Shown here one piece after another: positions 2,662 to 61,315 of a DNA stretch of 64,000 bases. A program made the translations under genes and the position numbers. A model generated the notes under the pieces. The model had not been told where the DNA came from and searched no databases. It worked only from the letters and a program-made list of their open reading frames with translations. The number at the start of each line of letters is the position of its first letter. The stretch's first letter is position 1. The stretch comes from an uncultured Gammaproteobacteria bacterium (GTDB taxonomy: Bacteria; Patescibacteriota; Microgenomatia; Levybacterales; UBA12049): contig CAZNAA010000001.1 of assembly GCA_964571255.1 (NCBI GenBank), positions 620,666 through 684,665 of the forward strand, in the 5' to 3' direction.

Positions 2662-3153
2662 TTACTGGCGGTATTTAGCAGGAAGCTTAGAAGGACGAGA
2701 AATTCGCTTCGCTCGTGGCTCAAGGACTCGTTGTGCAATAAGCCTTCTGATAAATTCTGTGGTTAAATAAATATCTAACCCTATATCTGCACTTATTTGT
2801 TCGATAGGCCAATTTAAATCTCTTAGTTCAATAATTCGTCCATTCCATTTTTTGAACAGGTTTTCACTTTCTCCTCGAGTAAGGTATTTTCTTCGAGGGG
2901 TTGTTTCTGGCTTCCTATTTATACCTTTCTGACGATGAAGTCTTTCTACTTCAGTTTCCACAACCTCAAACGGTAGAGAAAGAATTTTTGCAATCTCCCC
3001 AGCAGTTTGTCCAAACGATAGATATGTTGGTATATCTCTAATGATTCCATCGCGTCTGATACGTTCATAAGGAGAAAGATTCCTACTAGTACGTGGAAGA
3101 GCATAGAGAAACTTCGAATCCCCCCCAAAATTACTTAATTCTTGCTCTGACAT
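2662..3153 (-). CDS. Hypothetical tandem helix-turn-helix protein, paralog A (163 aa), basic C-terminal tail
   Basis: ORF; two HTH-like segments (GQTAGEIAKILSLPFEVV ; RIIELRDLNWPIEQISADIGLD); ~35% identity to 3638-4156 product. Confidence 0.6.
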   Translation of the reverse strand: MSEQELSNFGGDSKFLYALPRTSRNLSPYERIRRDGIIRDIPTYLSFGQTAGEIAKILSLPFEVVETEVERLHRQKGINRKPETTPRRKYLTRGESENLFKKWNGRIIELRDLNWPIEQISADIGLDIYLTTEFIRRLIAQRVLEPRAKRISRPSKLPAKYRQ

Positions 3154-3186
3154 AAGAGCAGTATTATATCATTTATTTCGCCCCAG

Positions 3187-3637: not shown

Positions 3638-4156
3638 TTACTGTTTACCTCTATATTTTATGGGTCGTTTAGAACGGCCATTATAAACTTGTCTTTTTCT
3701 ACGAGCGATTTCTCCTTCTTCTAATAATTTAGCTAACAGTAAATGAATAGATGACATGTCTAATCCTGTATCCTCACAGATTGCTTGAGCAGTCCATTCT
3801 TTATCTCTTAACTCAATTAGTCTTACTCTGAAGCGATCTAACAATGCTTTAGTCATTTCTGGAGATATAGGGGCTCTATGTCTCACTTCTTTTGGTCTTA
3901 GATTGTTAATACTAATATACTGAGATACTAATGCAACTGGGAGGGAAAGTGTTCTAGCAATAGCTTCATCTGTTAAGCCATTACTGACGTGAAGAGGGAT
4001 TTTTTCTTTCATCAGCTCTCGACGAGCCCGCTCATCAGGAGTTACCTCTCTTCGAGTAGGACGTCGGGGAGTTTGTCTATAGAAAGAACCTCCAGTAAGT
4101 TCTGCACTCATTTTTTTTTGAAAATCATCACCAGACCCTTCCCCCTCTTTAATCAT
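3638..4156 (-). CDS. Hypothetical tandem helix-turn-helix protein, paralog C (~172 aa)
   Basis: ORF; GLTDEAIARTLSLPVALV and RLIELRDKEWTAQAICEDTGLD motifs; start ATG 4156 (MIKEGEG) preceded by TATAAT(4164-4169). Confidence 0.6.
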   Translation of the reverse strand: MIKEGEGSGDDFQKKMSAELTGGSFYRQTPRRPTRREVTPDERARRELMKEKIPLHVSNGLTDEAIARTLSLPVALVSQYISINNLRPKEVRHRAPISPEMTKALLDRFRVRLIELRDKEWTAQAICEDTGLDMSSIHLLLAKLLEEGEIARRKRQVYNGRSKRPIKYRGKQ

Positions 4157-4163
4157 GTGCACT

Positions 4164-4169
4164 ATTATA
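4164..4169 (-). promoter_or_regulatory. -10 element TATAAT 7 nt upstream of ATG 4156 (leaderless-type)
   Basis: minus-strand gtgTATAATagtgcacATG. Confidence 0.4.
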
Positions 4170-4196
4170 CACCTCTTTCAGCTTCGATTAACTTCC

Positions 4197-4205
4197 TGCT
4201 ATAAT
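4197..4205 (+). promoter_or_regulatory. extended -10 TGcTATAAT 6 nt upstream of alaS ATG 4212 (leaderless-type)
   Basis: ccTGcTATAATacgcctATG; divergent from the 4164-4169 element. Confidence 0.5.
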
Positions 4206-4211
4206 ACGCCT

Positions 4212-6113
4212 ATGTTAACTGCAGCTGAAATTATTCAAAGATATATTACCTTTTTTGAAAAAAGAGGACATAAGAGGATTGCAAATGCTCCACTTGTTCC
4301 CCAGAATGATCCCACTACTCTTTTTACCTCAAGTGGAATGCAACCTCTTGTCCCGTATCTTTTAGGAGAAGTGCATCCCCAAGGGACAAGACTGGTTAAT
4401 GCTCAGAACTCCTTTAGAGCAAATGACTTTGATGAGATAGGTGATAACAGACATACCACTTTTTTTAGAATGCTAGGCAACTGGAGCCTAGGAGACTATT
4501 TCAAACAAGAACAAATTCCCTGGTTTTTAGAATTTCTTACTCATAAAGCTGAAGGATTAGGCCTTGATCCTAAAAACATCTATGTAACTGTTTTTTCAGG
4601 AGACAGCGCAAATAATATTCCCAAAGACACCGAATCTGCTGAGATTTGGAAAAAGTTGTTTCAAGAATCAGGAATAGAAGCAAAAGAAGTAGAACTTATT
4701 ACTGAAGAAGAGGGAGCAAAAAAGGGAATGCAAGGTGGAAAGATCTTTTACTACAACGCGAAAAAGAACTGGTGGTCAAGAAGTGGGACACCTGAAAATA
4801 TGCCAGCAGGAGAACCAGGTGGACCAGATACGGAAATGTTTTATGATTTTGGAACTCCCCATGATCCATCTTATGGAGAAAACTGTCATCCAAACTGTGA
4901 CTGTGGCCGGTTTATTGAACTAGGTAACTCTGTTTTCATGCAATATATTAAAAATGCTGACGGAACGTTTTCTCTTCTTCCTAAACAAAATGTCGACTAC
5001 GGAGGAGGACTGGAAAGAATTCACGCTGCAGTTAACAATGTGGCAGATGTCTATCGCACAAACCTTTTCTATCCAATCATTCAAACAATAGAAACACTTT
5101 CTGGCACAACCTATGAAAAAAATCCAAAAGACATGAGAATGATTGTTGGTCATTTGAGTGCAGCCTGTTTTATTATTAATGCTGGTATCTCCCCTTCCAA
5201 TACAGATCAGGGATATATCCTTCGCCGCTCTATTAGACGAGCAATGGATAGTACTCACTCTCTTCACTTAATAGATATTGAGCCTATTATTCAAACACTT
5301 GTTGATCAGTACCAAGAGACTGACCCAGAGTTAGTTGAGAACTTTGAAGTAATTAAAAATACCATTCTTGAAGAAAGTACAACATATAATAAAGCGCTTG
5401 ACTCTGCTAAGAAAAGTATTGAGAAAGAGATTAAAGAGAAAGGCATAAAAATAGGAGACGAACTCATGGGACTTACAGAAATCCCAGCAGAACTCGCTTT
5501 CAAATCCACTGCCTCATACGGCCTTGGCCCAACTCAGTTGAAAAGTCTTGGATACATTTTTGATGAACAAGCTTTTGCAGAGGAGATGAAAAAACATCAA
5601 GAGGTATCCAGGGCTGGAGCTGAGCGCAAATTCAAAGGAGGATTAGCAGATCATGAGGAAAAAACGATTCATGGACATACGGCAACACATTTGCTTCATA
5701 AATCTCTTCGAGACGTATTGGGAACACAAGTTCACCAAACAGGATCAAATATTACAACTGAGCGAGTCCGGTTTGACTTTAGTCACACCGATAAACTAAG
5801 CGATGAACAGCTAAAAACTGTTGAAGATACAGTCAATGAAAAGATCAAAGAAAACTTACCAGTCCATTTTGAGATTATTCCAACTAAAAAAGCCTATGAA
5901 TTAGGTGCTATTGGCTTATTTATGGATACATACGGAGATAGTTCTAAAATTTATTTCATCGGAGATACGTCAGAATCCTACACAAATGCCTATTCTATTG
6001 AATTTTGTGGAGGACCACACGTCGATTTTACAGGAGAGTTAAAATCCTTTAAGATAATAAAGCAGGAGAACCTTGGAAAAAATCAAAGAAGGATCTATGC
6101 TGTTGTTGGATAG
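4212..6113 (+). CDS. alaS: Alanine--tRNA ligase, short form (~634 aa; catalytic + tRNA recognition + editing HxxxH region, no C-Ala domain)
   Basis: MLTAAEIIQRYITFFEKRGH..., TLFTSSGMQ class II motif, FRMLGNWS, editing-domain HGHTATHLLH; ORF-track start 4155 includes the promoter and is probably wrong. Confidence 0.9.
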   Translation: MLTAAEIIQRYITFFEKRGHKRIANAPLVPQNDPTTLFTSSGMQPLVPYLLGEVHPQGTRLVNAQNSFRANDFDEIGDNRHTTFFRMLGNWSLGDYFKQEQIPWFLEFLTHKAEGLGLDPKNIYVTVFSGDSANNIPKDTESAEIWKKLFQESGIEAKEVELITEEEGAKKGMQGGKIFYYNAKKNWWSRSGTPENMPAGEPGGPDTEMFYDFGTPHDPSYGENCHPNCDCGRFIELGNSVFMQYIKNADGTFSLLPKQNVDYGGGLERIHAAVNNVADVYRTNLFYPIIQTIETLSGTTYEKNPKDMRMIVGHLSAACFIINAGISPSNTDQGYILRRSIRRAMDSTHSLHLIDIEPIIQTLVDQYQETDPELVENFEVIKNTILEESTTYNKALDSAKKSIEKEIKEKGIKIGDELMGLTEIPAELAFKSTASYGLGPTQLKSLGYIFDEQAFAEEMKKHQEVSRAGAERKFKGGLADHEEKTIHGHTATHLLHKSLRDVLGTQVHQTGSNITTERVRFDFSHTDKLSDEQLKTVEDTVNEKIKENLPVHFEIIPTKKAYELGAIGLFMDTYGDSSKIYFIGDTSESYTNAYSIEFCGGPHVDFTGELKSFKIIKQENLGKNQRRIYAVVG

Positions 6114-12101: not shown

Positions 12102-12362
12102 TTACTTTTTGTTTGAGAGAAGAGACTTGATAAGTTTAAAAATTCCTGTAATTGAGATCTCTTTTAGTATTCCTGAGATGTTTGAAAGTGGAGTAAGTAA
12201 CCCTTGAGCTGATGCATGAAGCTTTTCTACTGCAGTTCCAGCATTTTTAATAACCATTCGTACCTCTTTAATCAAAAGGAAAACTTGCACTCCAATAATC
12301 ACAAGAACAATCGTAATTGAAGTAAGAGTAAGAAGAAGAATGATTTGAACTGCTTCTGGCAT
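12102..12362 (-). CDS. DUF948-like small membrane protein
   Basis: 86 aa, single N-terminal TM then helical region; adjacent to YtxH-like gene as in Firmicutes. Confidence 0.5.
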   Translation of the reverse strand: MPEAVQIILLLTLTSITIVLVIIGVQVFLLIKEVRMVIKNAGTAVEKLHASAQGLLTPLSNISGILKEISITGIFKLIKSLLSNKK

Positions 12363-12392
12363 ATATCAAGCTTAACAGAAACTACGGTGGTG

Positions 12393-13028
12393 TCAATTGT
12401 CTTGAATGACTACATCTCGTTTTATGATGGTTTCCTTACCAAAAGTATTGCGAGCAACGACAGTTATCGTATTACTCCCTGGAAAAAGAGTAATTACTTT
12501 ACTAAACTCTCCTTGCTCTGAAACTGTTACTTGATCTTCATTCACAAAGACCAAAACAGAGGGATCTGTCTCCCCTGTTACTCGGACATCTTGTCCAAAA
12601 CTCTCTTGATCTTTAGGAGAAGAGAGGGAGATTCGAGGAGGAAGAAAAGCTGCGCGGTATTGATAAAAAAGATAAGAAAAGATAATAAGAAGTACTCCTA
12701 AAACCAAAAAAATCATTCGCCTCAGTCTAAACCTGCCAGTTCGCACCGTATGTTCTTTCGTAAAACCTTTAGGAAGTATCCGGTACGCATTATTGGCGTC
12801 AAATTCCCGTTTAAAAAGAGGGATAATACGTCTAGACGGGATGCCTAAAAACTCAGCATAATTTTTGACAAACCCTTGAGCATAGGAAGGAGAGGGAAGT
12901 TTATTATACTCCCCTTTCTCAATTGCGCTAAGGAACGAAAGTTTAATTCGTGTTCCCTCTGCAACCTCTTGTAGTGTCAATTTTTTATAAAGACGAGTTT
13001 CTTGAAGAATCTGACCAACAGTGATCAT
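12393..13028 (-). CDS. rodZ: RodZ-like cytoskeleton protein (XRE-type HTH + TM + C-terminal domain)
   Basis: MITVGQILQETRLYKKLTLQEVAEGTRIKLSFLSAIEKGEY HTH, TM MIFLVLGVLLIIFSYLFY. Confidence 0.7.
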   Translation of the reverse strand: MITVGQILQETRLYKKLTLQEVAEGTRIKLSFLSAIEKGEYNKLPSPSYAQGFVKNYAEFLGIPSRRIIPLFKREFDANNAYRILPKGFTKEHTVRTGRFRLRRMIFLVLGVLLIIFSYLFYQYRAAFLPPRISLSSPKDQESFGQDVRVTGETDPSVLVFVNEDQVTVSEQGEFSKVITLFPGSNTITVVARNTFGKETIIKRDVVIQDN

Positions 13029-18634: not shown

Positions 18635-19810
18635 TTACCAGGAAGGTAAAAATTCTTTAATATTTGATTGATCTACCTTTACACTTTCTACTTTTCCCTC
18701 AACAATCATTCGTGCAACCTTTCGACACATGCCCTCAATCAGTCTTTCTAAACTTCGAATGCCTGAGTCAAATCCTAAAGGCCTAATAAGAAGCGGCCAA
18801 ACAGAATCATCCACTTGTAACTGAGGTTCTGATAATCCTGTTCCTAATCGCACTCTATTAAACAGATATTGTTTCGCAATGGTTATTTTCTCTTGATCTG
18901 TATAGGAGGGCATCTGGATGATCTCTAAACGGTCTAGAACTGCGGTTGAGATGTTTTTGGTATTATTTGCCGTTGCGATAAACAACACGTTTGAGAGATT
19001 TACTGGATAGTCAATATAATGATCGGTAAAAGCTGCATTTTGCTCAGGGTCTAATAACTCAATGAGAACTCCCATAATATCAGCCCGAGCATTATCAGCA
19101 ACTCTATCTAATTCATCAAGAAGAATCACAGGATTTTTTGTTCCTGCAACACTAAGTTTTTTAATAACGCTCCCTGGTTCTGCATCAGGATACGCTTTTG
19201 ACTGTCCTCTGAGGACTCGTGAATCTGCCATACCTCCAAATGGAATACGAGCAAACTTTCGCCCTAAGGCTTCAGCTATAGAAATTGCCAGGGTTGTTTT
19301 TCCTGTTCCAGCCAATCCAACAAGGCACAAAATAGGAGCATGAGAAATCGTGTCTTTTTTACCAGATTTGAGATTTAAAATAATCGTTGCTAAGTATTCC
19401 AAAATTCTATCTTTAATAGGGTCTAATCCATAATGATTCTTATCAAGAACTTGCTTGGCTTTAATCAAATCCAGTAAGTCCTCAGATTGCGTATTCCAAG
19501 GAAGTCCTAGTACCCAGGTAATGTATGAAGAAGTATTTTCGTACTCTAAAATATAGTTAGTACTCATATACCCACTACTGGCACGAACCAAAGCAAGGCG
19601 TGATACGCGCTCTAAAAGAGTTTGCTTTAAATCCGAAGGAAGCGTAGTTGATTCAACTCGCTCTCCTAATTTTCGAATTTGATCATTTGATTCTATCTTA
19701 TCATTTCCGTTTCCATTCGTTTGAATTTGTGGCACGTCAGTAGTACTCGTTGGAGAGGGGTCTAAAGGAGTTTGATGTGGCGCTTGAAACAGCGGATGAG
19801 TTGGATCCAT
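18635..19810 (-). CDS. Lon-like AAA+ ATPase lacking LAN N-domain and S16 protease domain
   Basis: LGLPWN, LDKNHYGLDPIKDRILEYLA, Walker A LCLVGLAGTGKTT, Walker B VILLDELD, LDPEQNAAFTDHYIDYPVNLSNVLFIATAN; ends right after AAA+ alpha-subdomain; start ATG 19810 (MDPTHPL) because ATG 19831 overlaps the -10. Confidence 0.75.
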   Translation of the reverse strand: MDPTHPLFQAPHQTPLDPSPTSTTDVPQIQTNGNGNDKIESNDQIRKLGERVESTTLPSDLKQTLLERVSRLALVRASSGYMSTNYILEYENTSSYITWVLGLPWNTQSEDLLDLIKAKQVLDKNHYGLDPIKDRILEYLATIILNLKSGKKDTISHAPILCLVGLAGTGKTTLAISIAEALGRKFARIPFGGMADSRVLRGQSKAYPDAEPGSVIKKLSVAGTKNPVILLDELDRVADNARADIMGVLIELLDPEQNAAFTDHYIDYPVNLSNVLFIATANNTKNISTAVLDRLEIIQMPSYTDQEKITIAKQYLFNRVRLGTGLSEPQLQVDDSVWPLLIRPLGFDSGIRSLERLIEGMCRKVARMIVEGKVESVKVDQSNIKEFLPSW

Positions 19811-19830
19811 ATATGTAATACTATACAGCA

Positions 19831-22310: not shown

Positions 22311-22580
22311 TTAGTCTTTCATTCCTAATTTCTTTAGTATATCACTCATTCGAGTTTTATCAACCTTTTCTAAAAAGTTAATAAGACGACGTCTTTTTGC
22401 AATCATTGAGAGAAGCCCACGTCGACTATGGACATCATGTGCATGAAGTTTCAAATGTTCTGCAAGTTTTGTGATTCTGGTTGTAAGAAGGGCAATTTGT
22501 ACTTCTGGACTCCCGGTGTCTCCTGGAGTTGTTTGGTATTGTTTAATTACGTCTTGTTTAATTGTTGGTGCTAGTGGCAT
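22311..22580 (-). CDS. rpsO: 30S ribosomal protein S15
   Basis: MPLAPTIKQDVIKQYQTTPGDTGSPEVQIALLTTRI...HSRRGLLSMIAKRRRL; start at second ATG (22580); ORF-track start 22601 lies inside the promoter. Confidence 0.9.
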   Translation of the reverse strand: MPLAPTIKQDVIKQYQTTPGDTGSPEVQIALLTTRITKLAEHLKLHAHDVHSRRGLLSMIAKRRRLINFLEKVDKTRMSDILKKLGMKD

Positions 22581-22589
22581 ACAAAAGGT

Positions 22590-22618
22590 ATTATAGCACA
22601 TGACTTACTCAGGTGCAA
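22590..22618 (-). promoter_or_regulatory. rpsO promoter TTGCAC(22613-22618)-N17-TGcTATAAT(22590-22598), 9 nt before ATG
   Basis: extended -10 consensus; implies leaderless or near-leaderless rpsO mRNA. Confidence 0.5.
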
Positions 22619-25431: not shown

Positions 25432-26601
25432 TTACTCTTTAGTACCGTCTTCAGGAGTTTCAGGAGCTACTTCTTCAGTAACTGGGGATTCTTCTGCACT
25501 TTCAGAAATGTCTTCAGTAGCTTCTACTTCCTCTTTTGGAGCTTCTGAAGCTGTTTCACTTTCAGGTTCTACTTTTTCTGCTGCTGGCTTACTCTCAGCT
25601 ACTTCCTCAACTGACTCTTCTACTACTTCTTCTTTTTTCTCTTCAACTGGAGGAAGTCCTGCTCCTTCAATTTCAATTCTATATCCAGTTAGTTTTGAGG
25701 CTAATCGAACGTTTTGGCCATCTTTTCCAATAGCTAGTGACAATTGATCTTCAGGAACGGTTACTTTTGCTGTTTTTTCCTCTTCATTAATCGTTACACT
25801 AACGTCTTTTGCAGGAGCTAAGGCTTGAGTAATAAAGGACTTATTGTCATCAGTCCATTGGATAATATCAATTTTTTCTCCATTTACTTCCTGCAAAACT
25901 GCCTGAACTCGAACTCCTTTTTGTCCAACACAACTTCCCACAGGATCAATTCCTGGTTGGTCAGAAAACACTGCCATTTTAGTACGAGTCCCTGCTTCTC
26001 GAACAATGGTTCGAACCTCAACACTACCTGACGCTACTTCTGGAACTTCTCGTCTAAATAGTCCTTCAATAAGTCCAGTGTGAGCTCTGGAGACAATAAC
26101 TTCTTCGCCTCTCGTTCCTTCTCGAATTTCTACCAAGTAAAAAGAGAGACGCTGATTTAAGTAATACTTATCAGACCCAACTTGCTCTGATGGAGGCATG
26201 AGCGCTTCAGCTTTTCCAATATCAACAATGATATTTGGTCCTGCAAAGCGAAGAACCATTCCAGCAACAACTGTTCCCATTTTGATTTTGTAATCACTAA
26301 TGATTGCTTCTTTTTCTTTTTCTCTAATTTGTTGGAGGATTACTTGTTTAGCAGTTTGTGCAGCAATGCGGCCAAATCCTGGAGGTGTTACGTCTTTTCC
26401 TTGATGAAGAATTTTTGCTTCCCCTGTACTTTGATTTAATTCAGCTTCATATTCTTCAAGCTCAATTTCTGGATTATCTTTTCTATATGCTGCAAGAATA
26501 GCACTTTTAACCGTATCAAGTACGACTTTAGCATCGACTCCCCTCTCGGTAGCGACTTGGTTTAAAGCTAGTGCAAATTCTGAACGTTGTATAGCTGGCA
26601 T
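25432..26601 (-). CDS. nusA: Transcription termination/antitermination factor NusA with acidic C-terminal tail
   Basis: S1 and two KH domains (GPNIIVDIGKAEALMP, GSCVGQKGVRVQAV, LAIGKDGQNVRLASKLTG); start ATG 26601 (MPAIQRSEF). Confidence 0.9.
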   Translation of the reverse strand: MPAIQRSEFALALNQVATERGVDAKVVLDTVKSAILAAYRKDNPEIELEEYEAELNQSTGEAKILHQGKDVTPPGFGRIAAQTAKQVILQQIREKEKEAIISDYKIKMGTVVAGMVLRFAGPNIIVDIGKAEALMPPSEQVGSDKYYLNQRLSFYLVEIREGTRGEEVIVSRAHTGLIEGLFRREVPEVASGSVEVRTIVREAGTRTKMAVFSDQPGIDPVGSCVGQKGVRVQAVLQEVNGEKIDIIQWTDDNKSFITQALAPAKDVSVTINEEEKTAKVTVPEDQLSLAIGKDGQNVRLASKLTGYRIEIEGAGLPPVEEKKEEVVEESVEEVAESKPAAEKVEPESETASEAPKEEVEATEDISESAEESPVTEEVAPETPEDGTKE

Positions 26602-26608
26602 GTGAGTA

Positions 26609-26617
26609 ATTATAGCA
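26609..26617 (-). promoter_or_regulatory. extended -10 TGcTATAAT 7 nt upstream of nusA ATG 26601
   Basis: minus strand tcTGcTATAATtactcacATG. Confidence 0.5.
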
Positions 26618-26754
26618 GAAGAGACCCGAGCATTCAATCCGTACATGAAAGAATTGACAATAAAAGTCCTATAGTTTACAATTGGAACATGGCAAAGATA
26701 GCTTTCTTAAGCTATTTAGTCGTTCTTTAACAGTAATACATGGGTTTTTCATAT

Positions 26755-26805
26755 CTAGCTTAGGAGATAAGGTTATACCTTTTATAGCTTTTTTTCCTAA
26801 GCTAG
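26755..26805. repeat. 11-bp perfect inverted repeat CTAGCTTAGGA / TCCTAAGCTAG with 29-nt AT-rich spacer at the AT-rich/GC-rich boundary
   Basis: arms 26755-26765 and 26795-26805. Confidence 0.6.
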
Positions 26806-26820
26806 TAGCAAGGGAATCAA

Positions 26821-26842
26821 TACGCTACCACCTGGTAGCGTA
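26821..26842. promoter_or_regulatory. 22-bp perfect palindrome TACGCTACCA-CC-TGGTAGCGTA 25 nt upstream of ATG 26868 (operator-like or 5'-UTR stem)
   Basis: 10-bp arms, GC-rich like the downstream gene; followed by AGGAGG RBS. Confidence 0.55.
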
Positions 26843-26867
26843 TCTCATCCAGCAGGAGGTAGTCACC

Positions 26868-30033: not shown

Positions 30034-30377
30034 ATGGCAGATACGATACTCATGATAACAAGAATGGTAACGACAAAAGGAAATCCAATAATAAAACTCA
30101 AAAGGAGTAGCTCAATAAAAAGAATCGGAAGCATCAGAATAAGCCACGTTAAAATAATACATAGTTTCACAAAAATTCCCATCACAATAGAGAATCTCAC
30201 AAGTCCTTCTCGATATTCATTTTTAATTGGTTGAAAAAAGGTTTGGAGAAGCATTTTTATGGAGAACATATGCATAAATGCCTTATTAAATGAGAGAAAA
30301 AAAAGTACTGCTTCTCGAGGTACTTCAATAAACCAAAAATGCAGAAAATAAAGAGGCAAAAGGGAGATATGTGACAT
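30030..30377 (-). CDS. Small polytopic membrane protein (115 aa, ~3 TM)
   Basis: hydrophobic ORF embedded in operon. Confidence 0.5.
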   Translation of the reverse strand: MSHISLLPLYFLHFWFIEVPREAVLFFLSFNKAFMHMFSIKMLLQTFFQPIKNEYREGLVRFSIVMGIFVKLCIILTWLILMLPILFIELLLLSFIIGFPFVVTILVIMSIVSAI

Positions 30378-30415
30378 GCTTTCAGTCTAAAGGGTTTTTA
30401 ATGGGTTTGCAATTT

Positions 30416-40956: not shown

Positions 40957-41665
40957 TCAAATCTCCAAAATATCTTACTGCAGGAACAATAGTTGTATAG
41001 TTAAGGCGTTGTGGTCCAATAACTCCAATTTCTCCATGTTCCTGTCCTGGTACGTTGTACTCAGTAAAAACTAACCCATATGGTCCTTTTAACGCTCCTC
41101 CTAATTCATCTCCCATAACAATGTGAATTTCTTCATCAACGTCACTGTTTGCAAATAGTACTTTGAAATATTCATACTCATCCAAGGCTTGTAAAAGTGT
41201 TTTAGTGATATCGATATCAAAAAACTCTGGCATATCTAAAATATGTGCATAGCCTGAGCAATAGATTTGTCCACTTCCTGTTGTAGCAATGGCAACGGCT
41301 CCCGTTTTTTGAGCTAATGACTTAGTAACTTCCCTCAGAAACCTATCGACTTGAGACCGATAATCCCATACATTTTCTTTTAAGGCTACTTCCTCAACCG
41401 TTGATAACTGCTTTACTTTCATTAACTCTTTGACATACAGTCTCATGCCTTCAGCGGTTGGGATTCTTCCGGCTGAGGTGTGAGGTTTTTCTAAATAGCC
41501 AAGAGTTGTTAGATGAACCATTTCGTTTCGAATGGTTGCAGGAGAAGCACTTAAATTATATTTCTTCTCAATGGTTTCTGATCCAACTGGTAAAGCAGTG
41601 TCAATGTATTCCTCAATAATACTTTTCAGAATATCGATTTGACGCTGAGTAAGGTTATGAATCAT
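40931..41665 (-). CDS. hrcA: Heat-inducible transcription repressor HrcA (short, 244 aa)
   Basis: N-terminal winged HTH (TQRQIDILKSIIEEYIDTALPVGSETI), operon hrcA-grpE-dnaK-dnaJ. Confidence 0.85.
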   Translation of the reverse strand: MIHNLTQRQIDILKSIIEEYIDTALPVGSETIEKKYNLSASPATIRNEMVHLTTLGYLEKPHTSAGRIPTAEGMRLYVKELMKVKQLSTVEEVALKENVWDYRSQVDRFLREVTKSLAQKTGAVAIATTGSGQIYCSGYAHILDMPEFFDIDITKTLLQALDEYEYFKVLFANSDVDEEIHIVMGDELGGALKGPYGLVFTEYNVPGQEHGEIGVIGPQRLNYTTIVPAVRYFGDLIEDVAKQW

Positions 41666-41676
41666 AAGTTAGCAAT

Positions 41677-41705
41677 ATATTAACAAGACTGCCAGATTTT
41701 GTCAA
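41677..41705 (-). promoter_or_regulatory. Consensus sigma70 promoter TTGACA(41700-41705)-N17-TAATAT(41677-41682), 11 nt before hrcA ATG
   Basis: seen directly on minus strand; no CIRCE inverted repeat detectable nearby. Confidence 0.5.
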
Positions 41706-41745
41706 GTATATACATGAGAGTCTTTTTTTCGATACTATAAAAACA

Positions 41746-42081
41746 ATGATGAAAAGAAACAAGCGCAAAATCATGCATGCACTTCTAAGTGGTGTGTTTT
41801 TTATTCTTTTTTGTTTGTTTATTCGCTATGTCTCACCTGAGACAGTCGTAAGCTTAGGCTTTTTCTCTCTTTCCAGCTTGCCTTTTTTCTTTATCCTCCT
41901 TTTTCTTTTTACCTACTTTTTAACTATTACCTTTCTTCCCAGTGGTTTTCATGGACTTCTCATCTCAGGCTTTATCACCACCTACTTTTTGTTTCGGCTC
42001 AACGGACTGGAGAACCCGTTGTTTTTTGTCTTGCTTCTCTCTCTTCTTCTTCTCATTGAGCTTGTCATGTATAAGCGCTAG
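41746..42081 (+). CDS. Small membrane protein (111 aa)
   Basis: 3-4 hydrophobic helices; TACTAT 7 nt upstream of ATG. Confidence 0.45.
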   Translation: MMKRNKRKIMHALLSGVFFILFCLFIRYVSPETVVSLGFFSLSSLPFFFILLFLFTYFLTITFLPSGFHGLLISGFITTYFLFRLNGLENPLFFVLLLSLLLLIELVMYKR

Positions 42082-42101: not shown

Positions 42102-42110
42102 TGGTACAAT
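42102..42110 (+). promoter_or_regulatory. extended -10 TGgTACAAT 6 nt upstream of metG ATG 42117
   Basis: ttTGgTACAATccagttATG. Confidence 0.5.
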
Positions 42111-42116
42111 CCAGTT

Positions 42117-43565
42117 ATGAACAAGTATTACATCACTAATGCCATTCCCTATGTCAATGCAGCTCCTCATATTGGACACGCATTAGAATTTATTCAATCA
42201 GATACCATTGCTCGGTTTCACCGCTTACTTGGTGAAGAAGTAACATACCTTTGTGGCTCTGATGAGAATGCTCTTAAAAATGTTCAAGCAGCAGAAAAGA
42301 CTGGAGAAACAGTTCAAGTGTTTGTTGATAAATATGCATCAGTTTTTGAGGAAGCAGTGAAGAAATTAGGAGTTGCGTTTGATATCTTTCAAAAAACGAG
42401 TGATCAAGACAAACACTATCCAGCTAGTCAGAAGTTATGGGAACTTTGTAATGCAAACGGCGACATCTATAAAAAGTCCTACAAAGGGCTCTATTGTGTA
42501 GGATGTGAGACGTTTTATGCTAAAGAGGAACTTAACGAAAATGGCGAGTGCTTTGAACACCCTGGGAAAAAATTAGAAGAAGTAGAGGAGGAAAACTACT
42601 TCTTCCGCCTTTCTAAGTATCAAAAGGAGCTTATTGAACTTATTGAATCAGATACCTACCAAATTGTCCCTTCATTTAGGAAAAACGAAATTCTTTCTTT
42701 TCTGAAAAGTGGACTTGAGGACTTTAGTATTTCTCGAAGTAATGAGAGAGCCAAAAACTGGGGAATACCAGTTCCTGGAGATCCAACTCAGCGAATTTAT
42801 GTCTGGTTTGACGCGTTAAACGTATATCAAAGTGGGATTGGATTTTGCTGGGATGAGGAGCAATATTCAAAACTTTGGCCAGCTGATTTACATGTGATTG
42901 GCAAAGGAATTATTCGATTCCATGCTATCTATTGGCCAGCTATGCTTCTTTCAGCTAAACTCCAGCTTCCCAAAAAACTCTTTGTTCATGAGTACTTTAC
43001 TGTTGACGGGCAAAAAATGTCAAAGACTCTTGGAAATGTGATTGATCCAGTCGAAATGGTTGAAAAGTATGGAGCAGATCCCTTACGGTATTATTGCCTC
43101 TCTAAATTCTCTCCATTTTCTGATGGGGACTTTTCAGAAGAAAGACTCAAAGAAACGTATAACTCTGATTTAGCCAATGGACTAGGAAATCTTGTTGCCA
43201 GAGTTTCACGACTTTGTGAGACAGTACAGCTTGAAAACAAAGGACGAGTTAAGTCTCTTTCTGAATTAACTGAAATTGAAGAGTATCTTTCCTTTTTTGA
43301 AGAATTTAAGTTTAATGAAGTACTTTCTTTTGTCTGGAGAAAAATTACAGAGGTTGATCAATATATAAATCAAGAAAAACCATGGACTTTAGTTGAATCA
43401 GATACGGAGAAGGCAAAAGAGATCCTCACAAGGTGTGTTGAGGAAATTCTCGATATCTCAGTTCTTCTTACTCCTTTTATGCCAGAAACAGCAGGGAAAA
43501 TTCAAAATATATTTGGGAAAGAGGCAATTACTGCAGGAGAATCATTATTCCCTCGTCTTTCGTAA
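42117..43565 (+). CDS. metG: Methionine--tRNA ligase, minimal form (482 aa, no C-terminal tRNA-binding domain)
   Basis: HIGH motif PYVNAAPHIGHA, KMSKS motif KMSKTLGN. Confidence 0.92.
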   Translation: MNKYYITNAIPYVNAAPHIGHALEFIQSDTIARFHRLLGEEVTYLCGSDENALKNVQAAEKTGETVQVFVDKYASVFEEAVKKLGVAFDIFQKTSDQDKHYPASQKLWELCNANGDIYKKSYKGLYCVGCETFYAKEELNENGECFEHPGKKLEEVEEENYFFRLSKYQKELIELIESDTYQIVPSFRKNEILSFLKSGLEDFSISRSNERAKNWGIPVPGDPTQRIYVWFDALNVYQSGIGFCWDEEQYSKLWPADLHVIGKGIIRFHAIYWPAMLLSAKLQLPKKLFVHEYFTVDGQKMSKTLGNVIDPVEMVEKYGADPLRYYCLSKFSPFSDGDFSEERLKETYNSDLANGLGNLVARVSRLCETVQLENKGRVKSLSELTEIEEYLSFFEEFKFNEVLSFVWRKITEVDQYINQEKPWTLVESDTEKAKEILTRCVEEILDISVLLTPFMPETAGKIQNIFGKEAITAGESLFPRLS

Positions 43566-43569
43566 TTAC

Positions 43570-43905
43570 TTATTTAAAAAGCATATTCAAAGCCCAGGAG
43601 ATAAGAGATAAAACAATACTAAATAGGAGTGCCCATAAAAACCCATCAACAGTAAAGCCAGGAACAACATACGTTGCTCCCAAAATAAGTAAGGCGTTAA
43701 TAACCAGAGTAAACAAACCAAAGGTGAGAATAGTAATAGGAAGGGTAAGTAAAACTAAGATTGGCTTAATAACTACATTGGCAATTCCTAAGACTACAGC
43801 GAGAACTAATGCGGTGACAAAAGTGTCAACATGAATTCCAGGAAGAATATAGGCAGCAGTAAGAATAGCTAGCGCATTCAGTAACCAATTAATAAGTATT
43901 CCCAT
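43570..43905 (-). CDS. YvlD/DUF360 (phage holin 4_2 family) 4-TM membrane protein
   Basis: NALAILTAAYILPGIHVDTF...KPILVLLTLPITILTFGLFTLVINALLIL...VPGFTVDGF; likely start MGILINW (43905); longer ORF to 43968 also possible. Confidence 0.65.
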   Translation of the reverse strand: MGILINWLLNALAILTAAYILPGIHVDTFVTALVLAVVLGIANVVIKPILVLLTLPITILTFGLFTLVINALLILGATYVVPGFTVDGFLWALLFSIVLSLISWALNMLFK

Positions 43906-43951
43906 ATCTATATGGTATTCCAAACTAATTTCCCAGGTCAAGAGTGATTCT

Positions 43952-43960
43952 TGGTATAAT
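43952..43960 (+). promoter_or_regulatory. extended -10 TGgTATAAT 7 nt upstream of tatD ATG 43968
   Basis: ttTGgTATAATgcagacaATG. Confidence 0.5.
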
Positions 43961-43967
43961 GCAGACA

Positions 43968-44783
43968 ATGATTGATATTCATTGTCATTTAAATTTTCAC
44001 TCCTATGAAAATGATACTCCAGAAGTAATTAAGAATGCTTTTGCTGCAGGAGTGAGAGCAATTGTTAATGTTGGGACAAAACTGGACTCGAGTAAACAAG
44101 CAGTTGAACTAGCTCACCAATATGACAATTTGTGGGCAATCGTGGGAGTTCATCCTCATCATGCAGACAAAGTCGAGTTAGGTGAAGACTGGATCAAAGA
44201 GCTTGAGATTCTAGCAACAGATGAGAAAGTTATTGGAATTGGAGAGATTGGAATGGATTATTACTCCTATCAATCAAACGGCATTGTGGAATCCTCACTT
44301 CAAAAAGAAGTCTTTGAGGCCCAAATTGAGCTAGCTCATAGACAAAAACTTCCTCTCCAAATTCATCATAGACAAGTAGGACAAGAACTCATTGATATTC
44401 TCCTCCATCACAAAAATCTACTTCTTCCTATTCCTGGGATGTTTCATTGTTTTGCTGGATCAAAAGAGTTTCTCAAACAAGCACTAGACTTAGGATTTTT
44501 TATTGGCTTTGATGGAAACGTGACGTATAAAGGGATTCCCAAAGGAGAAACTGTCTCCCTTCGAGAACTTGCTGAGTACACACCCCTTGATCGAATCGTT
44601 ACCGAAACTGATAGCCCTTATCTTACTCCTGAGCCTTTCCGTGGACAGAGAAATGAGTCAAAACATGTTATACTTGTTGGAGAGTTCCTTGCAGATCTTA
44701 AAGGAGTAACGAATGCGGAAATGAGTGAGATTACAGTGAAGAATGTCTTGACTGCTTTCCCAAAATTGAAACTTACTCTTTAG
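43968..44783 (+). CDS. tatD: TatD-family metal-dependent hydrolase/DNase
   Basis: MIDIHCHLNF..., GEIGMDYY, HHR, FDGNVTYK motifs. Confidence 0.85.
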   Translation: MIDIHCHLNFHSYENDTPEVIKNAFAAGVRAIVNVGTKLDSSKQAVELAHQYDNLWAIVGVHPHHADKVELGEDWIKELEILATDEKVIGIGEIGMDYYSYQSNGIVESSLQKEVFEAQIELAHRQKLPLQIHHRQVGQELIDILLHHKNLLLPIPGMFHCFAGSKEFLKQALDLGFFIGFDGNVTYKGIPKGETVSLRELAEYTPLDRIVTETDSPYLTPEPFRGQRNESKHVILVGEFLADLKGVTNAEMSEITVKNVLTAFPKLKLTL

Positions 44784-51668: not shown

Positions 51669-53813
51669 CTAAACTACAGAGATTACTTCAACTGTTCCAC
51701 CACAAACGCGTGTAATAAGCTCTGTTACTTCAGTAAGAACGGATTGCACTCTCTCTTCTGTAATTCCTTCTCCTCCATCGACATTAATATACAGATTTTT
51801 CGTTTCCTCAGTTACTGCAGTTCGGACACTATCTCTATAGTTTAGATCTAAATTAAATGGTCCTACTTGATCGGTGTATATCATCTCTCCTTTTTTAATA
51901 GAAGTTTCCTCCGCTTCTCCAAGCAAATGAATTTTCTCTTCTCCTTTTGCAAGAGTTAGTTTCGTTGGGAATTCTAATTTTTCCATATCAAATACACCAA
52001 TTGATACTTTGTGTTTCAAAACCACAACGTTTGCTGCATCTACTGCTGTGTTGACGTTGTATACCTCTTTTCCACTGGCAAGACGTCTCAGGAGTGCTTC
52101 AGGACTAGGACGGCGTGAGTGATAGTCTACTCCCATGGTTTTATACATTGCTCTATAAGACTGAACTTCTGGAATTTCATTAATTTGTTCATTCGTTAAT
52201 CCAGCAAGGGATGTGACTACTTCTCCTTTTTCTTTTTCTAACTCTTCTGAAAGTTTTGTAACAGAGACTCCTTTAATAACCGCTACTCCCACCTTTATTG
52301 CTGGGAATTTTTGTAATACTGTTGAATCAATAGTGAGTTGCTCATTTGACACACTTTGTATAGAGGGAGCACTGTCTGATTTTAAGGTTGGGAACATCAC
52401 TACTTCTTTAATTCCCCATTTATTGGTGAAAAACATTGTGAGTCTATCAATTCCTACCCCAATTCCTCCAGTTGGTGGCATGCCATGCTCCATGGCAAGA
52501 AGGAAGTCTTCATCAAGTTGTTGTGCTTCTTCTTTGTCTTTTCGAGCAGCAACAACGTCTTTGGTAAATCTTTCTCTTTGAATAACAGGATCTGTCAACT
52601 CAGACCATCCATCAAAAATTTCTTTGCCTCCAACGTATCCTTCAAATCTCTCTACCCATCCCGGTTTACTCCTGTGAGGTTTTGAGAGAGGACTCACGTC
52701 TTCTGGATAATCAATAATCCAAGTTGGTTCACTCAGTTGTTTTGGAATTAAATGATCAAAGATCATAAAGATAAGTTGTCCTCTCGTTTCTCCTCCTAAA
52801 AGTTCCATATGAGGACAATGAAGTTTGGCAAATTCAAGAAGAGATGCTTCTGTCTCATCATCAACATCTAGTCCCAATTTTTCTTTAAGAATCTCAGTCA
52901 TAGAGATTCTTTTCCACTCTCCTCCAATATCAATAGTTTTATCTTCAATTTGGAGTGTGGTGTTTCCATTGAGTTTTTGGGCGATATGTTTGCAAAGTCC
53001 TTCTGCTACATCCATCACCCTGTTATAGTCTGCATACGCCTCATACCACTCAATCATGGTAAATTCTGGAAAGTGAGTTTGATCAATGCCTTCATTTCGA
53101 AAATCTTTACAGATCTCATATACTCTCTCATATCCACCAACCATCAAACGTTTCAGATATAACTCATCAGCAATTCGCAAATAGACGTCTTTATTTAACG
53201 CATTTAAATGAGTTTTAAAAGGTTTTGCATTAGCTCCACCATAAAGTGGTTGCAAAGTAGGGGTTTCGACTTCCCAGAATCCTAAATTGTCTAAATATTC
53301 ACGTACTGCGCGAACAAGTTTGGTTCGAGTATTAAATCTCTCCCGAACTTCTGGGTTAAGAAGTAAATCTAAATATCTTTGGCGATATCTCGTCTCAACG
53401 TCTTTTACCCCGTACCACTCACTAGGAAGCGGACGAAGGACTTTGGTTAAGAGAGTATAACTGGTTGGAGCAATAGAAACTTCCCCTGCAGTTGTCATAA
53501 CAATTTCTCCCTCAACGCCAACAAAATCTCCCAGATCCAAAAGTTTTAAATGATCATAGAGCTCTCCAAGGAGTTCTTTTTTAAGAAAAAGTTGGATTTT
53601 CCCTGTTTCATCTTTCAAATCAGCAAAAGAGATATTTCCATGAGAGCGAAAAGACGTGAGTCTTCCTGCAGTTTTCACTGTTTTTCCTTCCATCTCACGA
53701 GCTTGCCCAATCGTTTGTTCTTTAGGATAGGACGCAGGGTATGGATTCCAGCCTAAAGCTCTAATTCGCTCTAGTTTTTCAATCATTTGTTGACGCAGGT
53801 TTGAGTCTTCCAT
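51669..53813 (-). CDS. lysS: Lysine--tRNA ligase (class II) fused to ~215-aa C-terminal B3/B4-like tRNA-binding/editing-type domain
   Basis: OB anticodon domain; class II motifs (FRNEGIDQTHFPEFTMIEWY; GGIGVGIDRLTMFF); C-terminal NTAVDAANVVVLKHKVSIGVFDMEKL matches B3/4 N.VD..N...L..G.P.H.FD signature. Confidence 0.85.
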   Translation of the reverse strand: MEDSNLRQQMIEKLERIRALGWNPYPASYPKEQTIGQAREMEGKTVKTAGRLTSFRSHGNISFADLKDETGKIQLFLKKELLGELYDHLKLLDLGDFVGVEGEIVMTTAGEVSIAPTSYTLLTKVLRPLPSEWYGVKDVETRYRQRYLDLLLNPEVRERFNTRTKLVRAVREYLDNLGFWEVETPTLQPLYGGANAKPFKTHLNALNKDVYLRIADELYLKRLMVGGYERVYEICKDFRNEGIDQTHFPEFTMIEWYEAYADYNRVMDVAEGLCKHIAQKLNGNTTLQIEDKTIDIGGEWKRISMTEILKEKLGLDVDDETEASLLEFAKLHCPHMELLGGETRGQLIFMIFDHLIPKQLSEPTWIIDYPEDVSPLSKPHRSKPGWVERFEGYVGGKEIFDGWSELTDPVIQRERFTKDVVAARKDKEEAQQLDEDFLLAMEHGMPPTGGIGVGIDRLTMFFTNKWGIKEVVMFPTLKSDSAPSIQSVSNEQLTIDSTVLQKFPAIKVGVAVIKGVSVTKLSEELEKEKGEVVTSLAGLTNEQINEIPEVQSYRAMYKTMGVDYHSRRPSPEALLRRLASGKEVYNVNTAVDAANVVVLKHKVSIGVFDMEKLEFPTKLTLAKGEEKIHLLGEAEETSIKKGEMIYTDQVGPFNLDLNYRDSVRTAVTEETKNLYINVDGGEGITEERVQSVLTEVTELITRVCGGTVEVISVV

Positions 53814-53819
53814 ATTGGT

Positions 53820-53828
53820 ATTATAGCA
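53820..53828 (-). promoter_or_regulatory. extended -10 TGcTATAAT 6 nt upstream of lysS ATG 53813
   Basis: minus strand ttTGcTATAATaccaatATG. Confidence 0.5.
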
Positions 53829-56926: not shown

Positions 56927-56934
56927 AAGATGGA

Positions 56935-57333
56935 TTATAGATTAAATAATAATCCTTGGAAATTTACAGTTCTTTCTTGTCCAGCAACAACTCGTACTAC
57001 TTGAAGTGGAGGATTAAAAAATGAACTACTACTACTCGTTGCTTCAACAAAGTAAAGACCAGGAACTACATTTGCCATATACTCTCCATTACTATCAGTC
57101 ATAACTGTTGTCTTTTGATTTTGGTTTAAAACATTTTTTAGAGTAATCGTTACGTTTGCTCCTGGAAGAATTGATGAGAGGGGACGTAAGACATTACGAA
57201 GAGTTACTTTTCCCTTCACTGAGAAAAATGTAACAGGAGCGGTAACAACTTCTGCTGCAGAGACTGGGATGGTTGAGAAAACAAGGAAGAGGGAAAAAAG
57301 AAAAAGAGTTCCTACTAAAATTCTTTTTATCAT
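56935..57333 (-). CDS. Secreted carboxypeptidase-regulatory-like (transthyretin-fold) domain protein
   Basis: signal peptide, TDSNGEY motif. Confidence 0.55.
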   Translation of the reverse strand: MIKRILVGTLFLFSLFLVFSTIPVSAAEVVTAPVTFFSVKGKVTLRNVLRPLSSILPGANVTITLKNVLNQNQKTTVMTDSNGEYMANVVPGLYFVEATSSSSSFFNPPLQVVRVVAGQERTVNFQGLLFNL

Positions 57334-57339
57334 TTATTT

Positions 57340-57369
57340 AGTGTAAAAATTTTTGCACTTTTCTGTCAA
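57340..57369 (-). promoter_or_regulatory. Promoter TTGACA(57364-57369)-N18-TACACT(57340-57345), 6 nt before ATG 57333
   Basis: seen on minus strand. Confidence 0.35.
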
Positions 57370-61277: not shown

Positions 61278-61315
61278 ACAAGATAAGCGTAACGAAAGCA
61301 GAGGAAGTTGACAAG

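Follow-up and report, generated by a model that had tools for sequence, protein, structure and literature searches.

Extended −10 promoter elements beside start codons point to leaderless mRNAs in a Microgenomates bacterium

Genes and −10 elements of the window

The DNA analysed here, a 64-kb stretch that we call the window, comes from a Patescibacteria/candidate-phyla-radiation (CPR) bacterium of the Microgenomates group, a host with a small genome, and has a GC content of ~39% (36-41%). Among its 53 genes are alaS, rpsO, nusA, hrcA, metG, tatD and lysS, names that an earlier note had assigned from the letters and that NCBIfam confirmed. The same note had listed nine pairs of a −10 element and an ATG, and inspection of the sequence found every pair at its given place, with spacers of 6-11 nt (here always the nucleotides between the final T of the −10 hexamer and the first base of the ATG). 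Its label "HTH" for the divergent partner of alaS fared less well, as it comes solely from a sub-threshold HTH_IclR match (19.6 bits against a cutoff of 22). Further modules of the same type, absent from that list, were located at 3153, 12362, 30377, 41746, 43905, 56926 and 61277, and all are collected in Table 1. A tRNA scan found none, and an Rfam scan of the whole window was negative for cis-regulatory RNAs, the T-box and the S15 leader included, which fits absent leaders and is not proof of them. A CIRCE-like operator was looked for near hrcA, and none was found.

Table 1. Candidate promoter-start modules of the window (coordinates in the window)
Gene	Span (strand)	−35 hexamer	−35 to −10 (nt)	−10 element	Spacer (nt)	Start codon	CDS	Remarks
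3153 gene	3151..3171 (−)			TGATATAAT 3163-3171	9	ATG 3153	2662-3153	
HTH-like gene	4154..4169 (−)			TATAAT 4164-4169	7	ATG 4156	3638-4156	divergent partner of alaS; 172 aa, weak HTH; without TG extension
alaS	4197..4214 (+)			TGCTATAAT 4197-4205	6	ATG 4212	4212-6113	extended −10; product a short 633-aa AlaRS form (NCBIfam PRK01584, protein residue 3 to profile position 2)
12362 gene	12360..12396 (−)	TTGACA 12391-12396	16	TGtTAAGCT 12369-12377	6	ATG 12362	12102-12362	
Lon-like AAA gene	19808..19825 (−)			TATAGT 19820-19825	9	ATG 19810		uncertain
rpsO	22578..22618 (−)	TTGCAC 22613-22618	17	TGCTATAAT 22590-22598	9	ATG 22580	22311-22580	
nusA	26599..26637 (−)	TTGAAT 26632-26637	17	TGCTATAAT 26609-26617	7	ATG 26601	25432-26601	
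Divergent partner of nusA	26670..26684 (+)			TATAGT 26670-26675	6	TTG 26682	26682-27467	without family match
30377 gene	30375..30412 (−)	TTGCAA 30407-30412	17	TAGACT 30384-30389	6	ATG 30377	30030-30377	
hrcA	41663..41705 (−)	TTGACA 41700-41705	17	TAATAT 41677-41682	11	ATG 41665		
Divergent partner of hrcA	41733..41748 (+)			TACTAT 41733-41738	7	ATG 41746	41746-42081	
metG	42102..42119 (+)			TGgTACAAT 42102-42110	6	ATG 42117		
Holin_4_2-like gene	43903..43941 (−)	TTGACC 43936-43941	18	TACCAT 43912-43917	6	ATG 43905	43570-43905	
tatD	43952..43970 (+)			TGgTATAAT 43952-43960	7	ATG 43968		back to back with the promoter of the holin-like gene
lysS	53811..53828 (−)			TGCTATAAT 53820-53828	6	ATG 53813		inside the 20-nt gap after the stop codon of the upstream gene
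Wzy_C-type gene	56924..56939 (−)			TATAAT 56934-56939	7	GTG 56926	55820-56926	
56935 gene	57331..57369 (−)	TTGACA 57364-57369	18	TACACT 57340-57345	6	ATG 57333	56935-57333	
61277 gene	61275..61314 (−)	TTGTCA 61309-61314	17	TACGCT 61286-61291	8	ATG 61277	60135-61277	

The extra candidates with GTG (56926) or TTG (26682) starts are less secure and remain uncertain, the latter because of its TTG; GTG 56926 is the sole start codon available to the Wzy_C-type gene. For the Lon-like AAA gene, it is possible, and uncertain, that ATG 19810 rather than ATG 19831 is the true start. The 12362 gene combines a weak −10 hexamer with a canonical −35.

The description of these elements as widespread holds for roughly 17 of the 53 genes, so that about one transcription unit in two has such an element at its first gene, and does not extend to all genes. 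Back-to-back divergent promoters had also been proposed, and a −10 does lie beside both starts in all four divergent intergenic regions of the window, where 55-80 nt separate the start codons and the two separate −10 hexamers are 30-55 bp apart; two promoters would stand back to back within 55-80 bp, with no untranslated regions. Symmetry-driven bidirectional promoters (Warman et al. 2021, according to the summary in PMC10268837) are defined by divergent starts 7-25 bp apart (optimum 18 bp) and one shared −10 region. The divergent regions resemble these in that transcription would diverge from a very short region, and the TATAAT of the HTH-like gene reads TATTAT on the other strand (4163-4168). 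However, the predicted starts are 55-80 bp apart and have −10 hexamers of their own, which indicates two promoters placed back to back instead of one that works in both directions, and we rejected a shared promoter of that type on both grounds. The plus-strand TATTAT at 4163-4168, the mirror of the −10 of the HTH-like gene, could be the source of a second, leadered alaS transcript.

Shine-Dalgarno (SD) motifs were infrequent, with any 4-nt SD core preceding 6 of the 53 gene starts (GGAGG in 3 of those 6; for example GGGAGGAG before 9401), and no SD core was found upstream of any −10-adjacent start in the window, in line with the earlier note. Operon-internal junctions overlapped or had gaps of at most 5 nt in 14 of 19 cases (counted from the gene-gap table), and about a dozen genes, among them pnp, infB, dnaK and ftsK, followed gaps of 26-206 nt with neither an adjacent −10 nor an SD core. 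The 16S rRNA 3′ end, which would give the anti-SD sequence, was looked for in all retrieved loci and was present in none.

Excess at a fixed distance from the start codon

A strict scan, independent of the earlier list, searched for TAnnnT hexamers with at least 5 of 6 matches to TATAAT that end 6-9 nt before a candidate start ATG, with other spacers as background. Such hexamers preceded 10 of 81 candidate start ATGs compared to 1.19 expected (P = 5e-7); the start codon was ATG in 10/10 matches, and TG occupied −15/−14 in 7 of the 10, although the dinucleotide has a frequency of just 0.061 (P = 3e-7). The motif TGNTATAAT by itself was mildly enriched (7 sites vs 2.4 expected, with 3 of 100 shuffles reaching 7), and 6 of these 7 sites lay 6-9 nt before an ATG opening at least 80 codons (binomial P ~ 1e-11). 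A generic scan of the window for TTGACA-N16-18-TATAAT showed no enrichment (31 sites vs 43.9 in shuffles), so a −35-based consensus has no discriminating power here, and what carries the information is an extended −10 whose distance to the ATG is fixed.

The same excess recurs in related genomes. In 80 loci (598 kb) carrying alaS orthologs from metagenomes, hereafter the related loci, 129 −10 hexamers were found at spacers 6-10 compared to 26.7 expected, those with TG numbered 56 compared to 2.6 expected, and the spacer distribution was sharply bounded at 6-10 nt. An exact TGnTATAAT lay 6-10 nt before the conserved start in 30 of 69 non-redundant alaS orthologs (45-62% identity; 0.02 expected), while an SD core was found in 3 of the 69; the upstream DNA was otherwise unconserved, and a position matrix built from the 30 promoters revealed no −35 conservation. 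One locus from Kerfeldbacteria and one from Saccharimonadales, the latter with 50% GC, also had the −10 peak, and Firmicutes and Bacteroidota control loci of similar GC had no −10 peak at 6-9 nt. In L001-L006, the loci of the closest nusA relatives, the N-termini of nusA, rpsO, hrcA, dnaK and dnaJ are kept and the adjacent −10 is not, and the overall −10 signal is weak (7 vs 3.1 expected, P = 0.04); the −10/ATG trait is a genome-level one, not fixed gene by gene.

AT-rich intergenic DNA beside start codons might produce such elements by chance, a reading to which the 36-41% GC of the window, the modest enrichment of TGNTATAAT alone and the low count of the generic scan would be congenial. Against it stand the position-specific tests over the window and the related loci, with P values from 5e-7 down to 1e-53, together with the absence of a peak in Firmicutes and Bacteroidota loci of equal GC and its presence in the 50% GC Saccharimonadales locus. 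The spacer-specific statistics effectively refute chance, to which we give next to no credence.

The sigma subunit of the polymerase contacts the TG that precedes the −10 hexamer, and extended −10 promoters need little or no −35. Canonical −35 hexamers at 16-18 nt accompany nusA, rpsO, hrcA, 12362, 30377, 43905, 57333 and 61277. These features bear on the idea that the UAUAAU-like element acts at the RNA level and, on leadered transcripts, takes the place of the SD by binding the ribosome or enhancing initiation, comparable to the Bacteroidota non-SD motif, an idea with which the rarity of SD motifs in the window would agree. We regard it as very improbable, since the sigma-contact TG is enriched about tenfold, several −35 hexamers at 16-18 nt are TTGACA-like, and 9 of the 10 strict matches precede non-operon-internal genes (genes that are divergent or that follow their upstream neighbour at more than 20 nt; the lysS gap is 20 nt). 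Under loose motif criteria, first-in-unit genes did not differ significantly from internal ones, either in the window (Fisher P = 0.14) or in the related loci (P = 0.07). Moreover, the related loci that show the −10 peak also show a genuine peak of SD 4-mers at spacers 6-9, and the Bacteroidota control loci lack the −10 peak. In group B of GeneMarkS-2 (Bacteroidota), the non-SD motif precedes all genes, operon-internal ones included, and is not a promoter (PMC6028130). The elements described here share with it the scarcity of SD and an A/T-rich motif close to the start codon, but they carry TG and −35 features and occur alongside a real SD peak, whereas our Bacteroidota loci had no peak at 6-9 nt. 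We rejected an RNA-level ribosome-binding motif on the polymerase-specific TG and −35 features, the non-internal placement and the missing Bacteroidota peak; the evidence supports elements that behave as RNA-polymerase promoters and not as ribosome sites.

Even with real promoters, the mRNAs may not be strictly leaderless: transcription might begin at a fixed seventh nucleotide and leave leaders of 1-5 nt, or upstream promoters might be combined with SD-less, A/U-rich, S1-dependent initiation. Spacers do vary (6-11 nt, both in the window and among the orthologs), some alaS orthologs have TGnTATAAT 22-41 nt upstream and an A/U-rich leader without SD, and the dozen or so window genes with neither signal also suit this possibility. 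We nonetheless consider it unlikely. Among the related loci, a pyrimidine directly precedes the ATG in 109 of 139 cases (78%) compared to 53% in other start classes (P = 5e-10), and the excess at −1 is equally strong for each spacer from 6 to 10, which argues that the start tracks the ATG and not a fixed distance from the −10; the sharp 6-10 nt bounds of the spacers likewise speak against this possibility.

Start codons and annotation

Family profiles begin at residues 1-8 counted from the −10-adjacent ATG for alaS, tatD, metG, lysS, hrcA and S15. For tatD, TIGR00010 aligns residue 1 to position 1, and the public call is 271 aa from ATG 43968; alignments to the MetG profiles begin at residues 1-2, and residue 6 matches position 3 of the LysRS profile for lysS and position 1 of the HrcA profile for hrcA. 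For S15, the profile begins close to ATG 22580, and the N-terminus MPL of rpsO is kept in the relatives' loci L002-L004, as is M[AP]xQARTEFA of nusA in L001-L006; the alaS N-terminus is common to 74 orthologs. From ATG 43905, which is also the start called in Logan contigs, residues 1-104 of the holin-like protein align to positions 1-104 of 105 in Pfam PF04020.

The earlier note had held that the longer starts of the open-reading-frame track for alaS, rpsO, nusA, tatD and the first HTH gene run through the genes' own promoters. The shorter ATG is backed by family profiles (alaS, tatD, S15) and by conserved N-termini (alaS, nusA, rpsO), and for the HTH gene the public gene call also uses ATG 4156. 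The start codon beside the predicted promoter is therefore supported as the true N-terminus for the tested genes. The public record of the same genome calls rpsO from ATG 22601 (96 aa) and nusA from ATG 26646 (404 aa), and both calls appear to be over-extended, running through the putative promoters of these genes.

Proposed initiation mode and relation to known systems

We judge it likely that these are sigma-70-type promoters, mostly of the extended −10 form (TGnTATAAT), set against the start codons of first genes, and that the resulting mRNAs are leaderless. Around one third of the genes would have a promoter 6-9 nt before the start, and their mRNAs probably begin at the AUG, lacking a ribosome-binding leader. 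The promoter reading is drawn from the TG enrichment, the −35 hexamers at 16-18 nt, the −10-to-ATG distance, the pyrimidine at −1 and the lack of SD cores, and from this architecture we infer both where transcription starts and that translation is leaderless. In a survey of 49 bacteria, the distance from the −10 to the transcription start was centred on ~7 bp (PMC12641261). RNA polymerase would open the −10 and start 7-10 nt downstream on the A of the ATG, the pyrimidine before that A providing the preferred Y(−1)R(+1) start, so that the mRNA would begin with AUG or a few extra nucleotides and have no SD. The 5′-terminal AUG would then be bound directly by the ribosome and initiator tRNA, as in the leaderless mRNAs of Actinobacteria and Deinococcus-Thermus. 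Downstream cistrons would mostly be translated by coupling, given that stop and start codons overlap or adjoin within 5 nt, and a minority of genes would use a genuine SD. For rpsO, 3153 and hrcA, the spacers of 9-11 nt reach or exceed the limit of normal start-site selection and may give leaders of 2-5 nt; for the 11-nt spacer of hrcA, a leader of ~4-5 nt is predicted.

The closest counterpart is group C of GeneMarkS-2, whose signature is a Pribnow box that lies 6-8 nt ahead of first-in-operon genes, these genes lacking an SD while other genes have one, and in which an estimated 25-50% of operons are leaderless (PMC6028130). Roughly half of the transcription units of the window have the same anatomy, with a −10 near first-gene starts, no SD there, SD elsewhere, and the AUG (or GUG) start that leaderless translation calls for. 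Unlike the classic examples, which belong to high-GC phyla (Actinobacteria, for instance Mycobacterium tuberculosis, and Deinococcus-Thermus, for instance Deinococcus deserti), the host is a CPR bacterium of low GC (~39%); its element is mainly the extended TGnTATAAT with no conserved −35, its spacers cover a slightly broader range (6-10 nt), and its architecture is read from sequence, whereas transcription starts were mapped in the classic examples. Extended −10 promoters of E. coli and Gram-positive bacteria likewise have TG one base upstream of TATAAT. Independence from a consensus −35, another trait of that class, may hold here as well: the 30 alaS ortholog promoters show no −35 conservation, and several window promoters have a good −35. 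The difference is that the promoter here appears to be fused to the coding sequence, with discriminator, transcription start and start codon predicted to coincide.

The architecture is a leaderless one of known type, in a lineage for which we found no published description: full-text literature joining leaderless genes with CPR lineages yielded passing mentions or citations only, and in what could be searched we came across no account of translation initiation in CPR bacteria. Anti-SD findings in the candidate phyla radiation have been published (PMC9297842). Besides Actinobacteria and Deinococcus-Thermus, a third radiation, very large and largely uncultured, would then use the leaderless mode, with many of its housekeeping genes (aminoacyl-tRNA synthetases, S15, NusA and HrcA) built as leaderless units. 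Such an architecture agrees with the small genomes and the reduced ribosomes that CPR bacteria have. The start annotation of CPR genome bins would gain from a leaderless-aware model, and TGnTATAAT followed by 6-9 nt and ATG would offer a simple promoter design for Patescibacteria genetic tools.

More tentatively, and as a conjecture that we hold with less than even confidence, the phylum Patescibacteria/CPR as a whole may initiate in the leaderless way from extended −10 promoters, a trait that is possibly ancestral and possibly tied to its pared-down translation apparatus. If so, a major bacterial radiation would translate first cistrons through 5′-AUG recognition and the rest through coupling, and a sizeable fraction of public CPR start-codon annotations would be over-extended. 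The pared-down apparatus of CPR bacteria comprises a short bS1, a truncated IF2, missing ribosomal proteins and, in some Parcubacteria, loss of the anti-SD; the IF2 encoded in the window is N-terminally truncated, at 475 aa.

Promoter elements adjacent to start codons

On re-reading the sequence, all nine pairs of a -10 hexamer and an ATG listed in the earlier note were found at the positions given there (Table); their gene names were confirmed by NCBIfam, apart from the 'HTH' label, which rests on a sub-threshold HTH_IclR match. The -35 hexamers of nusA (TTGAAT) and rpsO (TTGCAC) both lie 17 nt from the -10. In the window, TGNTATAAT occurs 7 times compared to 2.4 expected, a count that alone is weak evidence because 3 of 100 shuffled windows reach 7 sites; six of the seven, moreover, lie 6-9 nt 5' of an ATG opening at least 80 codons (P ~ 1e-11). 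We then took as candidate starts, chosen blind to the motif, every ATG at most 40 codons from the upstream in-frame stop and opening at least 80 codons (n = 81), and scanned for TAnnnT hexamers matching TATAAT at five or more of six positions, with the expectation drawn from spacers 14-40. The hexamer ended 6-9 nt before 10 of the 81 ATGs in the window, relative to 1.19 predicted (P = 5e-7), and TG stood at -15/-14 in 7 of these 10 hits, against a dinucleotide frequency of 0.061 (P = 3e-7); such spacer-specific statistics exclude chance. Inspection of all ORF starts in the window added modules absent from the earlier list (Table), for a total of about 17 of 53 genes, or roughly half of transcription-unit first genes.

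The sole TGNTATAAT with no gene start after it is TGTTATAAT (10964-10972, -), inside mltG (10676-11638, +). A terminator-like hairpin, AGGAGATAGGCGAAAATCTCCT (10945-10924), with a partial T-tract follows 18 nt past it, and the region (10914-10972, -) could yield an antisense RNA of ~45 nt inside mltG, or else be a coincidence.

Back-to-back divergent promoters had also been proposed, and all eight starts of the window's four divergent regions indeed carry a -10-like hexamer 6-11 nt upstream. At 4156/4212 the two hexamers lie 30 nt apart as an inverted repeat, TATTATA (4163-4169) / TATAATA (4200-4206); because the -35 region of each promoter falls within the other's spacer, the two polymerases probably compete there. 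A shared bidirectional promoter, defined by divergent starts 7-25 bp apart (PMC10268837), was rejected for these pairs, whose predicted starts are 55-80 nt apart.

The -35 of hrcA is flanked by an inverted repeat, AACAAGACT / AGTCTTTTT, whose arms are separated by 28 nt (41682-41727). No canonical CIRCE operator (TTAGCACTC-N9-GAGTGCTAA) was seen in the window. In the nusA relative L001, TTAGCACTC adjoins TTGACA upstream of hrcA. AAGACTC is found again upstream of dnaK; the hrcA upstream repeat may be a divergent HrcA operator.

Table. Promoter/start modules, divergent regions and genes with neither signal in the window (spacer, last T of the hexamer to the A of the ATG)
Class	Gene or start	Promoter elements	Spacer (nt)	Between start codons (nt)
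Listed pair	alaS		6	
Listed pair	metG		6	
Listed pair	lysS		6	
Listed pair	56935 gene		6	
Listed pair	HTH-like gene		7	
Listed pair	nusA		7	
Listed pair	tatD		7	
Listed pair	rpsO		9	
Listed pair	hrcA		11	
Extra module	3153	TGATATAAT	9	
Extra module	12362	TTGACA-16-TGtTAAGCT	6	
Extra module	30377	TTGCAA-17-TAGACT	6	
Extra module	41746	TACTAT	7	
Extra module	43905	TTGACC-18-TACCAT	6	
Extra module	56926 (GTG)	TATAAT	7	
Extra module	61277	TTGTCA-17-TACGCT	8	
Divergent region	4156/4212			55
Divergent region	26601/26682			80
Divergent region	41665/41746			80
Divergent region	43905/43968			62
Neither signal	22258 pnp			
Neither signal	25337 infB			
Neither signal	40381 dnaK			
Neither signal	15170 ftsK			
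Neither signal	36584			
Neither signal	51642			
Neither signal	48851			

Start codons and predicted transcription starts

The earlier proposal that the shorter, promoter-adjacent starts are the true ones is backed by profile alignments (protein residue to profile position: alaS 3 to 2, tatD 1 to 1, metG 1 to 1, lysS 6 to 3, hrcA 6 to 1 and S15 8 to 5) and by conserved N-termini, with the equivalent methionine serving as the start in 74 alaS orthologs, M[AP]xQARTEFA of NusA kept in six relatives and MPL of S15 in three. Read from ATG 43905, the holin_4_2-like protein matches positions 1-104 of a 105-position profile. For alaS, tatD and the HTH-like gene, public calls (NCBI, Logan) coincide with the ATG beside the promoter; those of rpsO (96 aa) and nusA (404 aa) begin at extended starts and, on the evidence just given, appear over-extended.

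The extended -10 is frequently preceded by a run of C-A, to read caTGcTATAAT (alaS promoters of the metagenomic loci L079-L123; window 22596-22601), and in the alaS promoter matrix position -17 is C/T and position -16 is A, which may reflect a lineage-specific '-16 region' preference. The same string creates spurious upstream ATGs, such as that of the over-extended rpsO call.

In 49 bacteria, the distribution of transcription starts is centred 7 bp past the -10 (PMC12641261), and at a spacer of 6 nt this seventh base is the ATG's own A. If transcription began there as a Y(-1)R(+1) start, an excess of pyrimidines before the ATG would be predicted, as was seen in the pooled data: 109 of 139 promoter-adjacent starts had one (T, 60%), the figure for Shine-Dalgarno-type or unclassified starts being 53%, and the enrichment was present at each spacer from 6 to 10 (P = 5e-10). 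This suggests that the start site would follow the ATG and not a fixed distance from the -10. The mRNAs of module genes are probably leaderless or near-leaderless. The one realistic competing reading is that some genes (spacers 9-11, hrcA) carry 1-5-nt leaders or that additional upstream promoters exist, for which the plus-strand TATTAT at 4163-4168 is a candidate.

Occurrence in relatives and control genomes

The best NusA relatives belonged to Microgenomates-group and Blackburnbacteria genome bins (50-58% identity), which assigns the window to Patescibacteria/CPR. A metagenome scan with AlaRS gave 80 loci (45-62% identity; 598 kb) with 69 non-redundant upstream regions. An exact TGnTATAAT lay 6-10 nt before the conserved ATG in 30 of the 69 (0.02 expected), a 5/6 hexamer in 8 more and a Shine-Dalgarno core in only 3; the remaining upstream DNA, including the -35 region, showed no conservation across the 69 regions. 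Throughout the 598 kb, -10 hexamers preceded candidate starts at spacers 6-10 in 129 cases compared to 26.7 expected (P ~ 6e-46), 56 of TG-bearing type relative to 2.6 expected. That the motif acts in RNA, as a ribosome-binding signal, is unlikely: its TG and -35 features are specific to polymerase, 9 of the 10 strict hits in the window stand before genes outside operon-internal positions, and a genuine Shine-Dalgarno 4-mer peak (spacers 6-9) is present alongside the -10 peak in the same loci.

The -10 peak was also observed in a Kerfeldbacteria chromosome segment (8 vs 1.2) and a 50%-GC Saccharimonadales contig (5 vs 0.6), was weak among the six nearest nusA relatives (7 vs 3.1), and was absent from similar-GC loci of Firmicutes (8 vs 19) and Bacteroidota (8 vs 9.8). 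No adjacent -10 was found at nusA and rpsO of those six relatives (L001-L006). Placement of the promoter at the start codon is a property of genome and lineage, unfixed for single genes. Five alaS orthologs (L087, L094, L101, L102 and L112) have TGnTATAAT 22-41 nt upstream and a short leader with A/U-rich repeats, e.g. atttctaatttctaatttcta, and no Shine-Dalgarno, a second, leadered but Shine-Dalgarno-less initiation mode in the clade.

Other initiation signals and comparison with known systems

Shine-Dalgarno cores were found at 6 of the window's 53 genes, three of them GGAGG. Translational coupling is suggested at operon-internal junctions, since 14 of 19 by our count overlap or have a gap of at most 5 nt. 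An Rfam scan of the window returned no leader RNA of any kind, and in about a dozen cases a gene following a gap of 26-206 nt lacked both an adjacent -10 and a Shine-Dalgarno core (examples in the Table); ftsK carries TGCTATTAT 20 nt upstream. Intrinsic-terminator hairpins lie directly 5' of two start codons (38426-38443 and 55705-55725, -), AAGCGCG-N4-CGCGCTT with a T-tract preceding dnaJ (ATG 38406) and cccctcactgagggg with tttttt preceding ATG 55691, leaving less than 25 nt for promoter and leader.

GeneMarkS-2 group C genomes, described for Actinobacteria and Deinococcus-Thermus, have a Pribnow box 6-8 nt from first-gene starts and Shine-Dalgarno sequences elsewhere, with 25-50% of operons leaderless (PMC6028130). 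The window's architecture agrees with group C in every sequence-level criterion tested. A full-text search with CPR-lineage names found only passing mentions and no paper describing leaderless genes in CPR; the mechanism is well understood and appears to be undocumented for this lineage. The anti-Shine-Dalgarno is reported to have been lost in a Parcubacteria subgroup, and bS1 to be short across CPR generally (PMC9297842).

IF2 (23910-25337, -) has only 475 aa and starts at TIGR00487 position 81, so its N-terminal region is missing, and AlaRS (4212-6113, +), at 633 aa, has the short PRK01584 form; both are in keeping with a reduced translation apparatus in CPR. LysRS (51669-53813, -) has 714 aa, with a catalytic core ending near residue 479 and a C-terminal extension of ~235 aa, of which residues 554-677 weakly match the PheRS beta subunit, and this extension may be an appended tRNA-binding domain.
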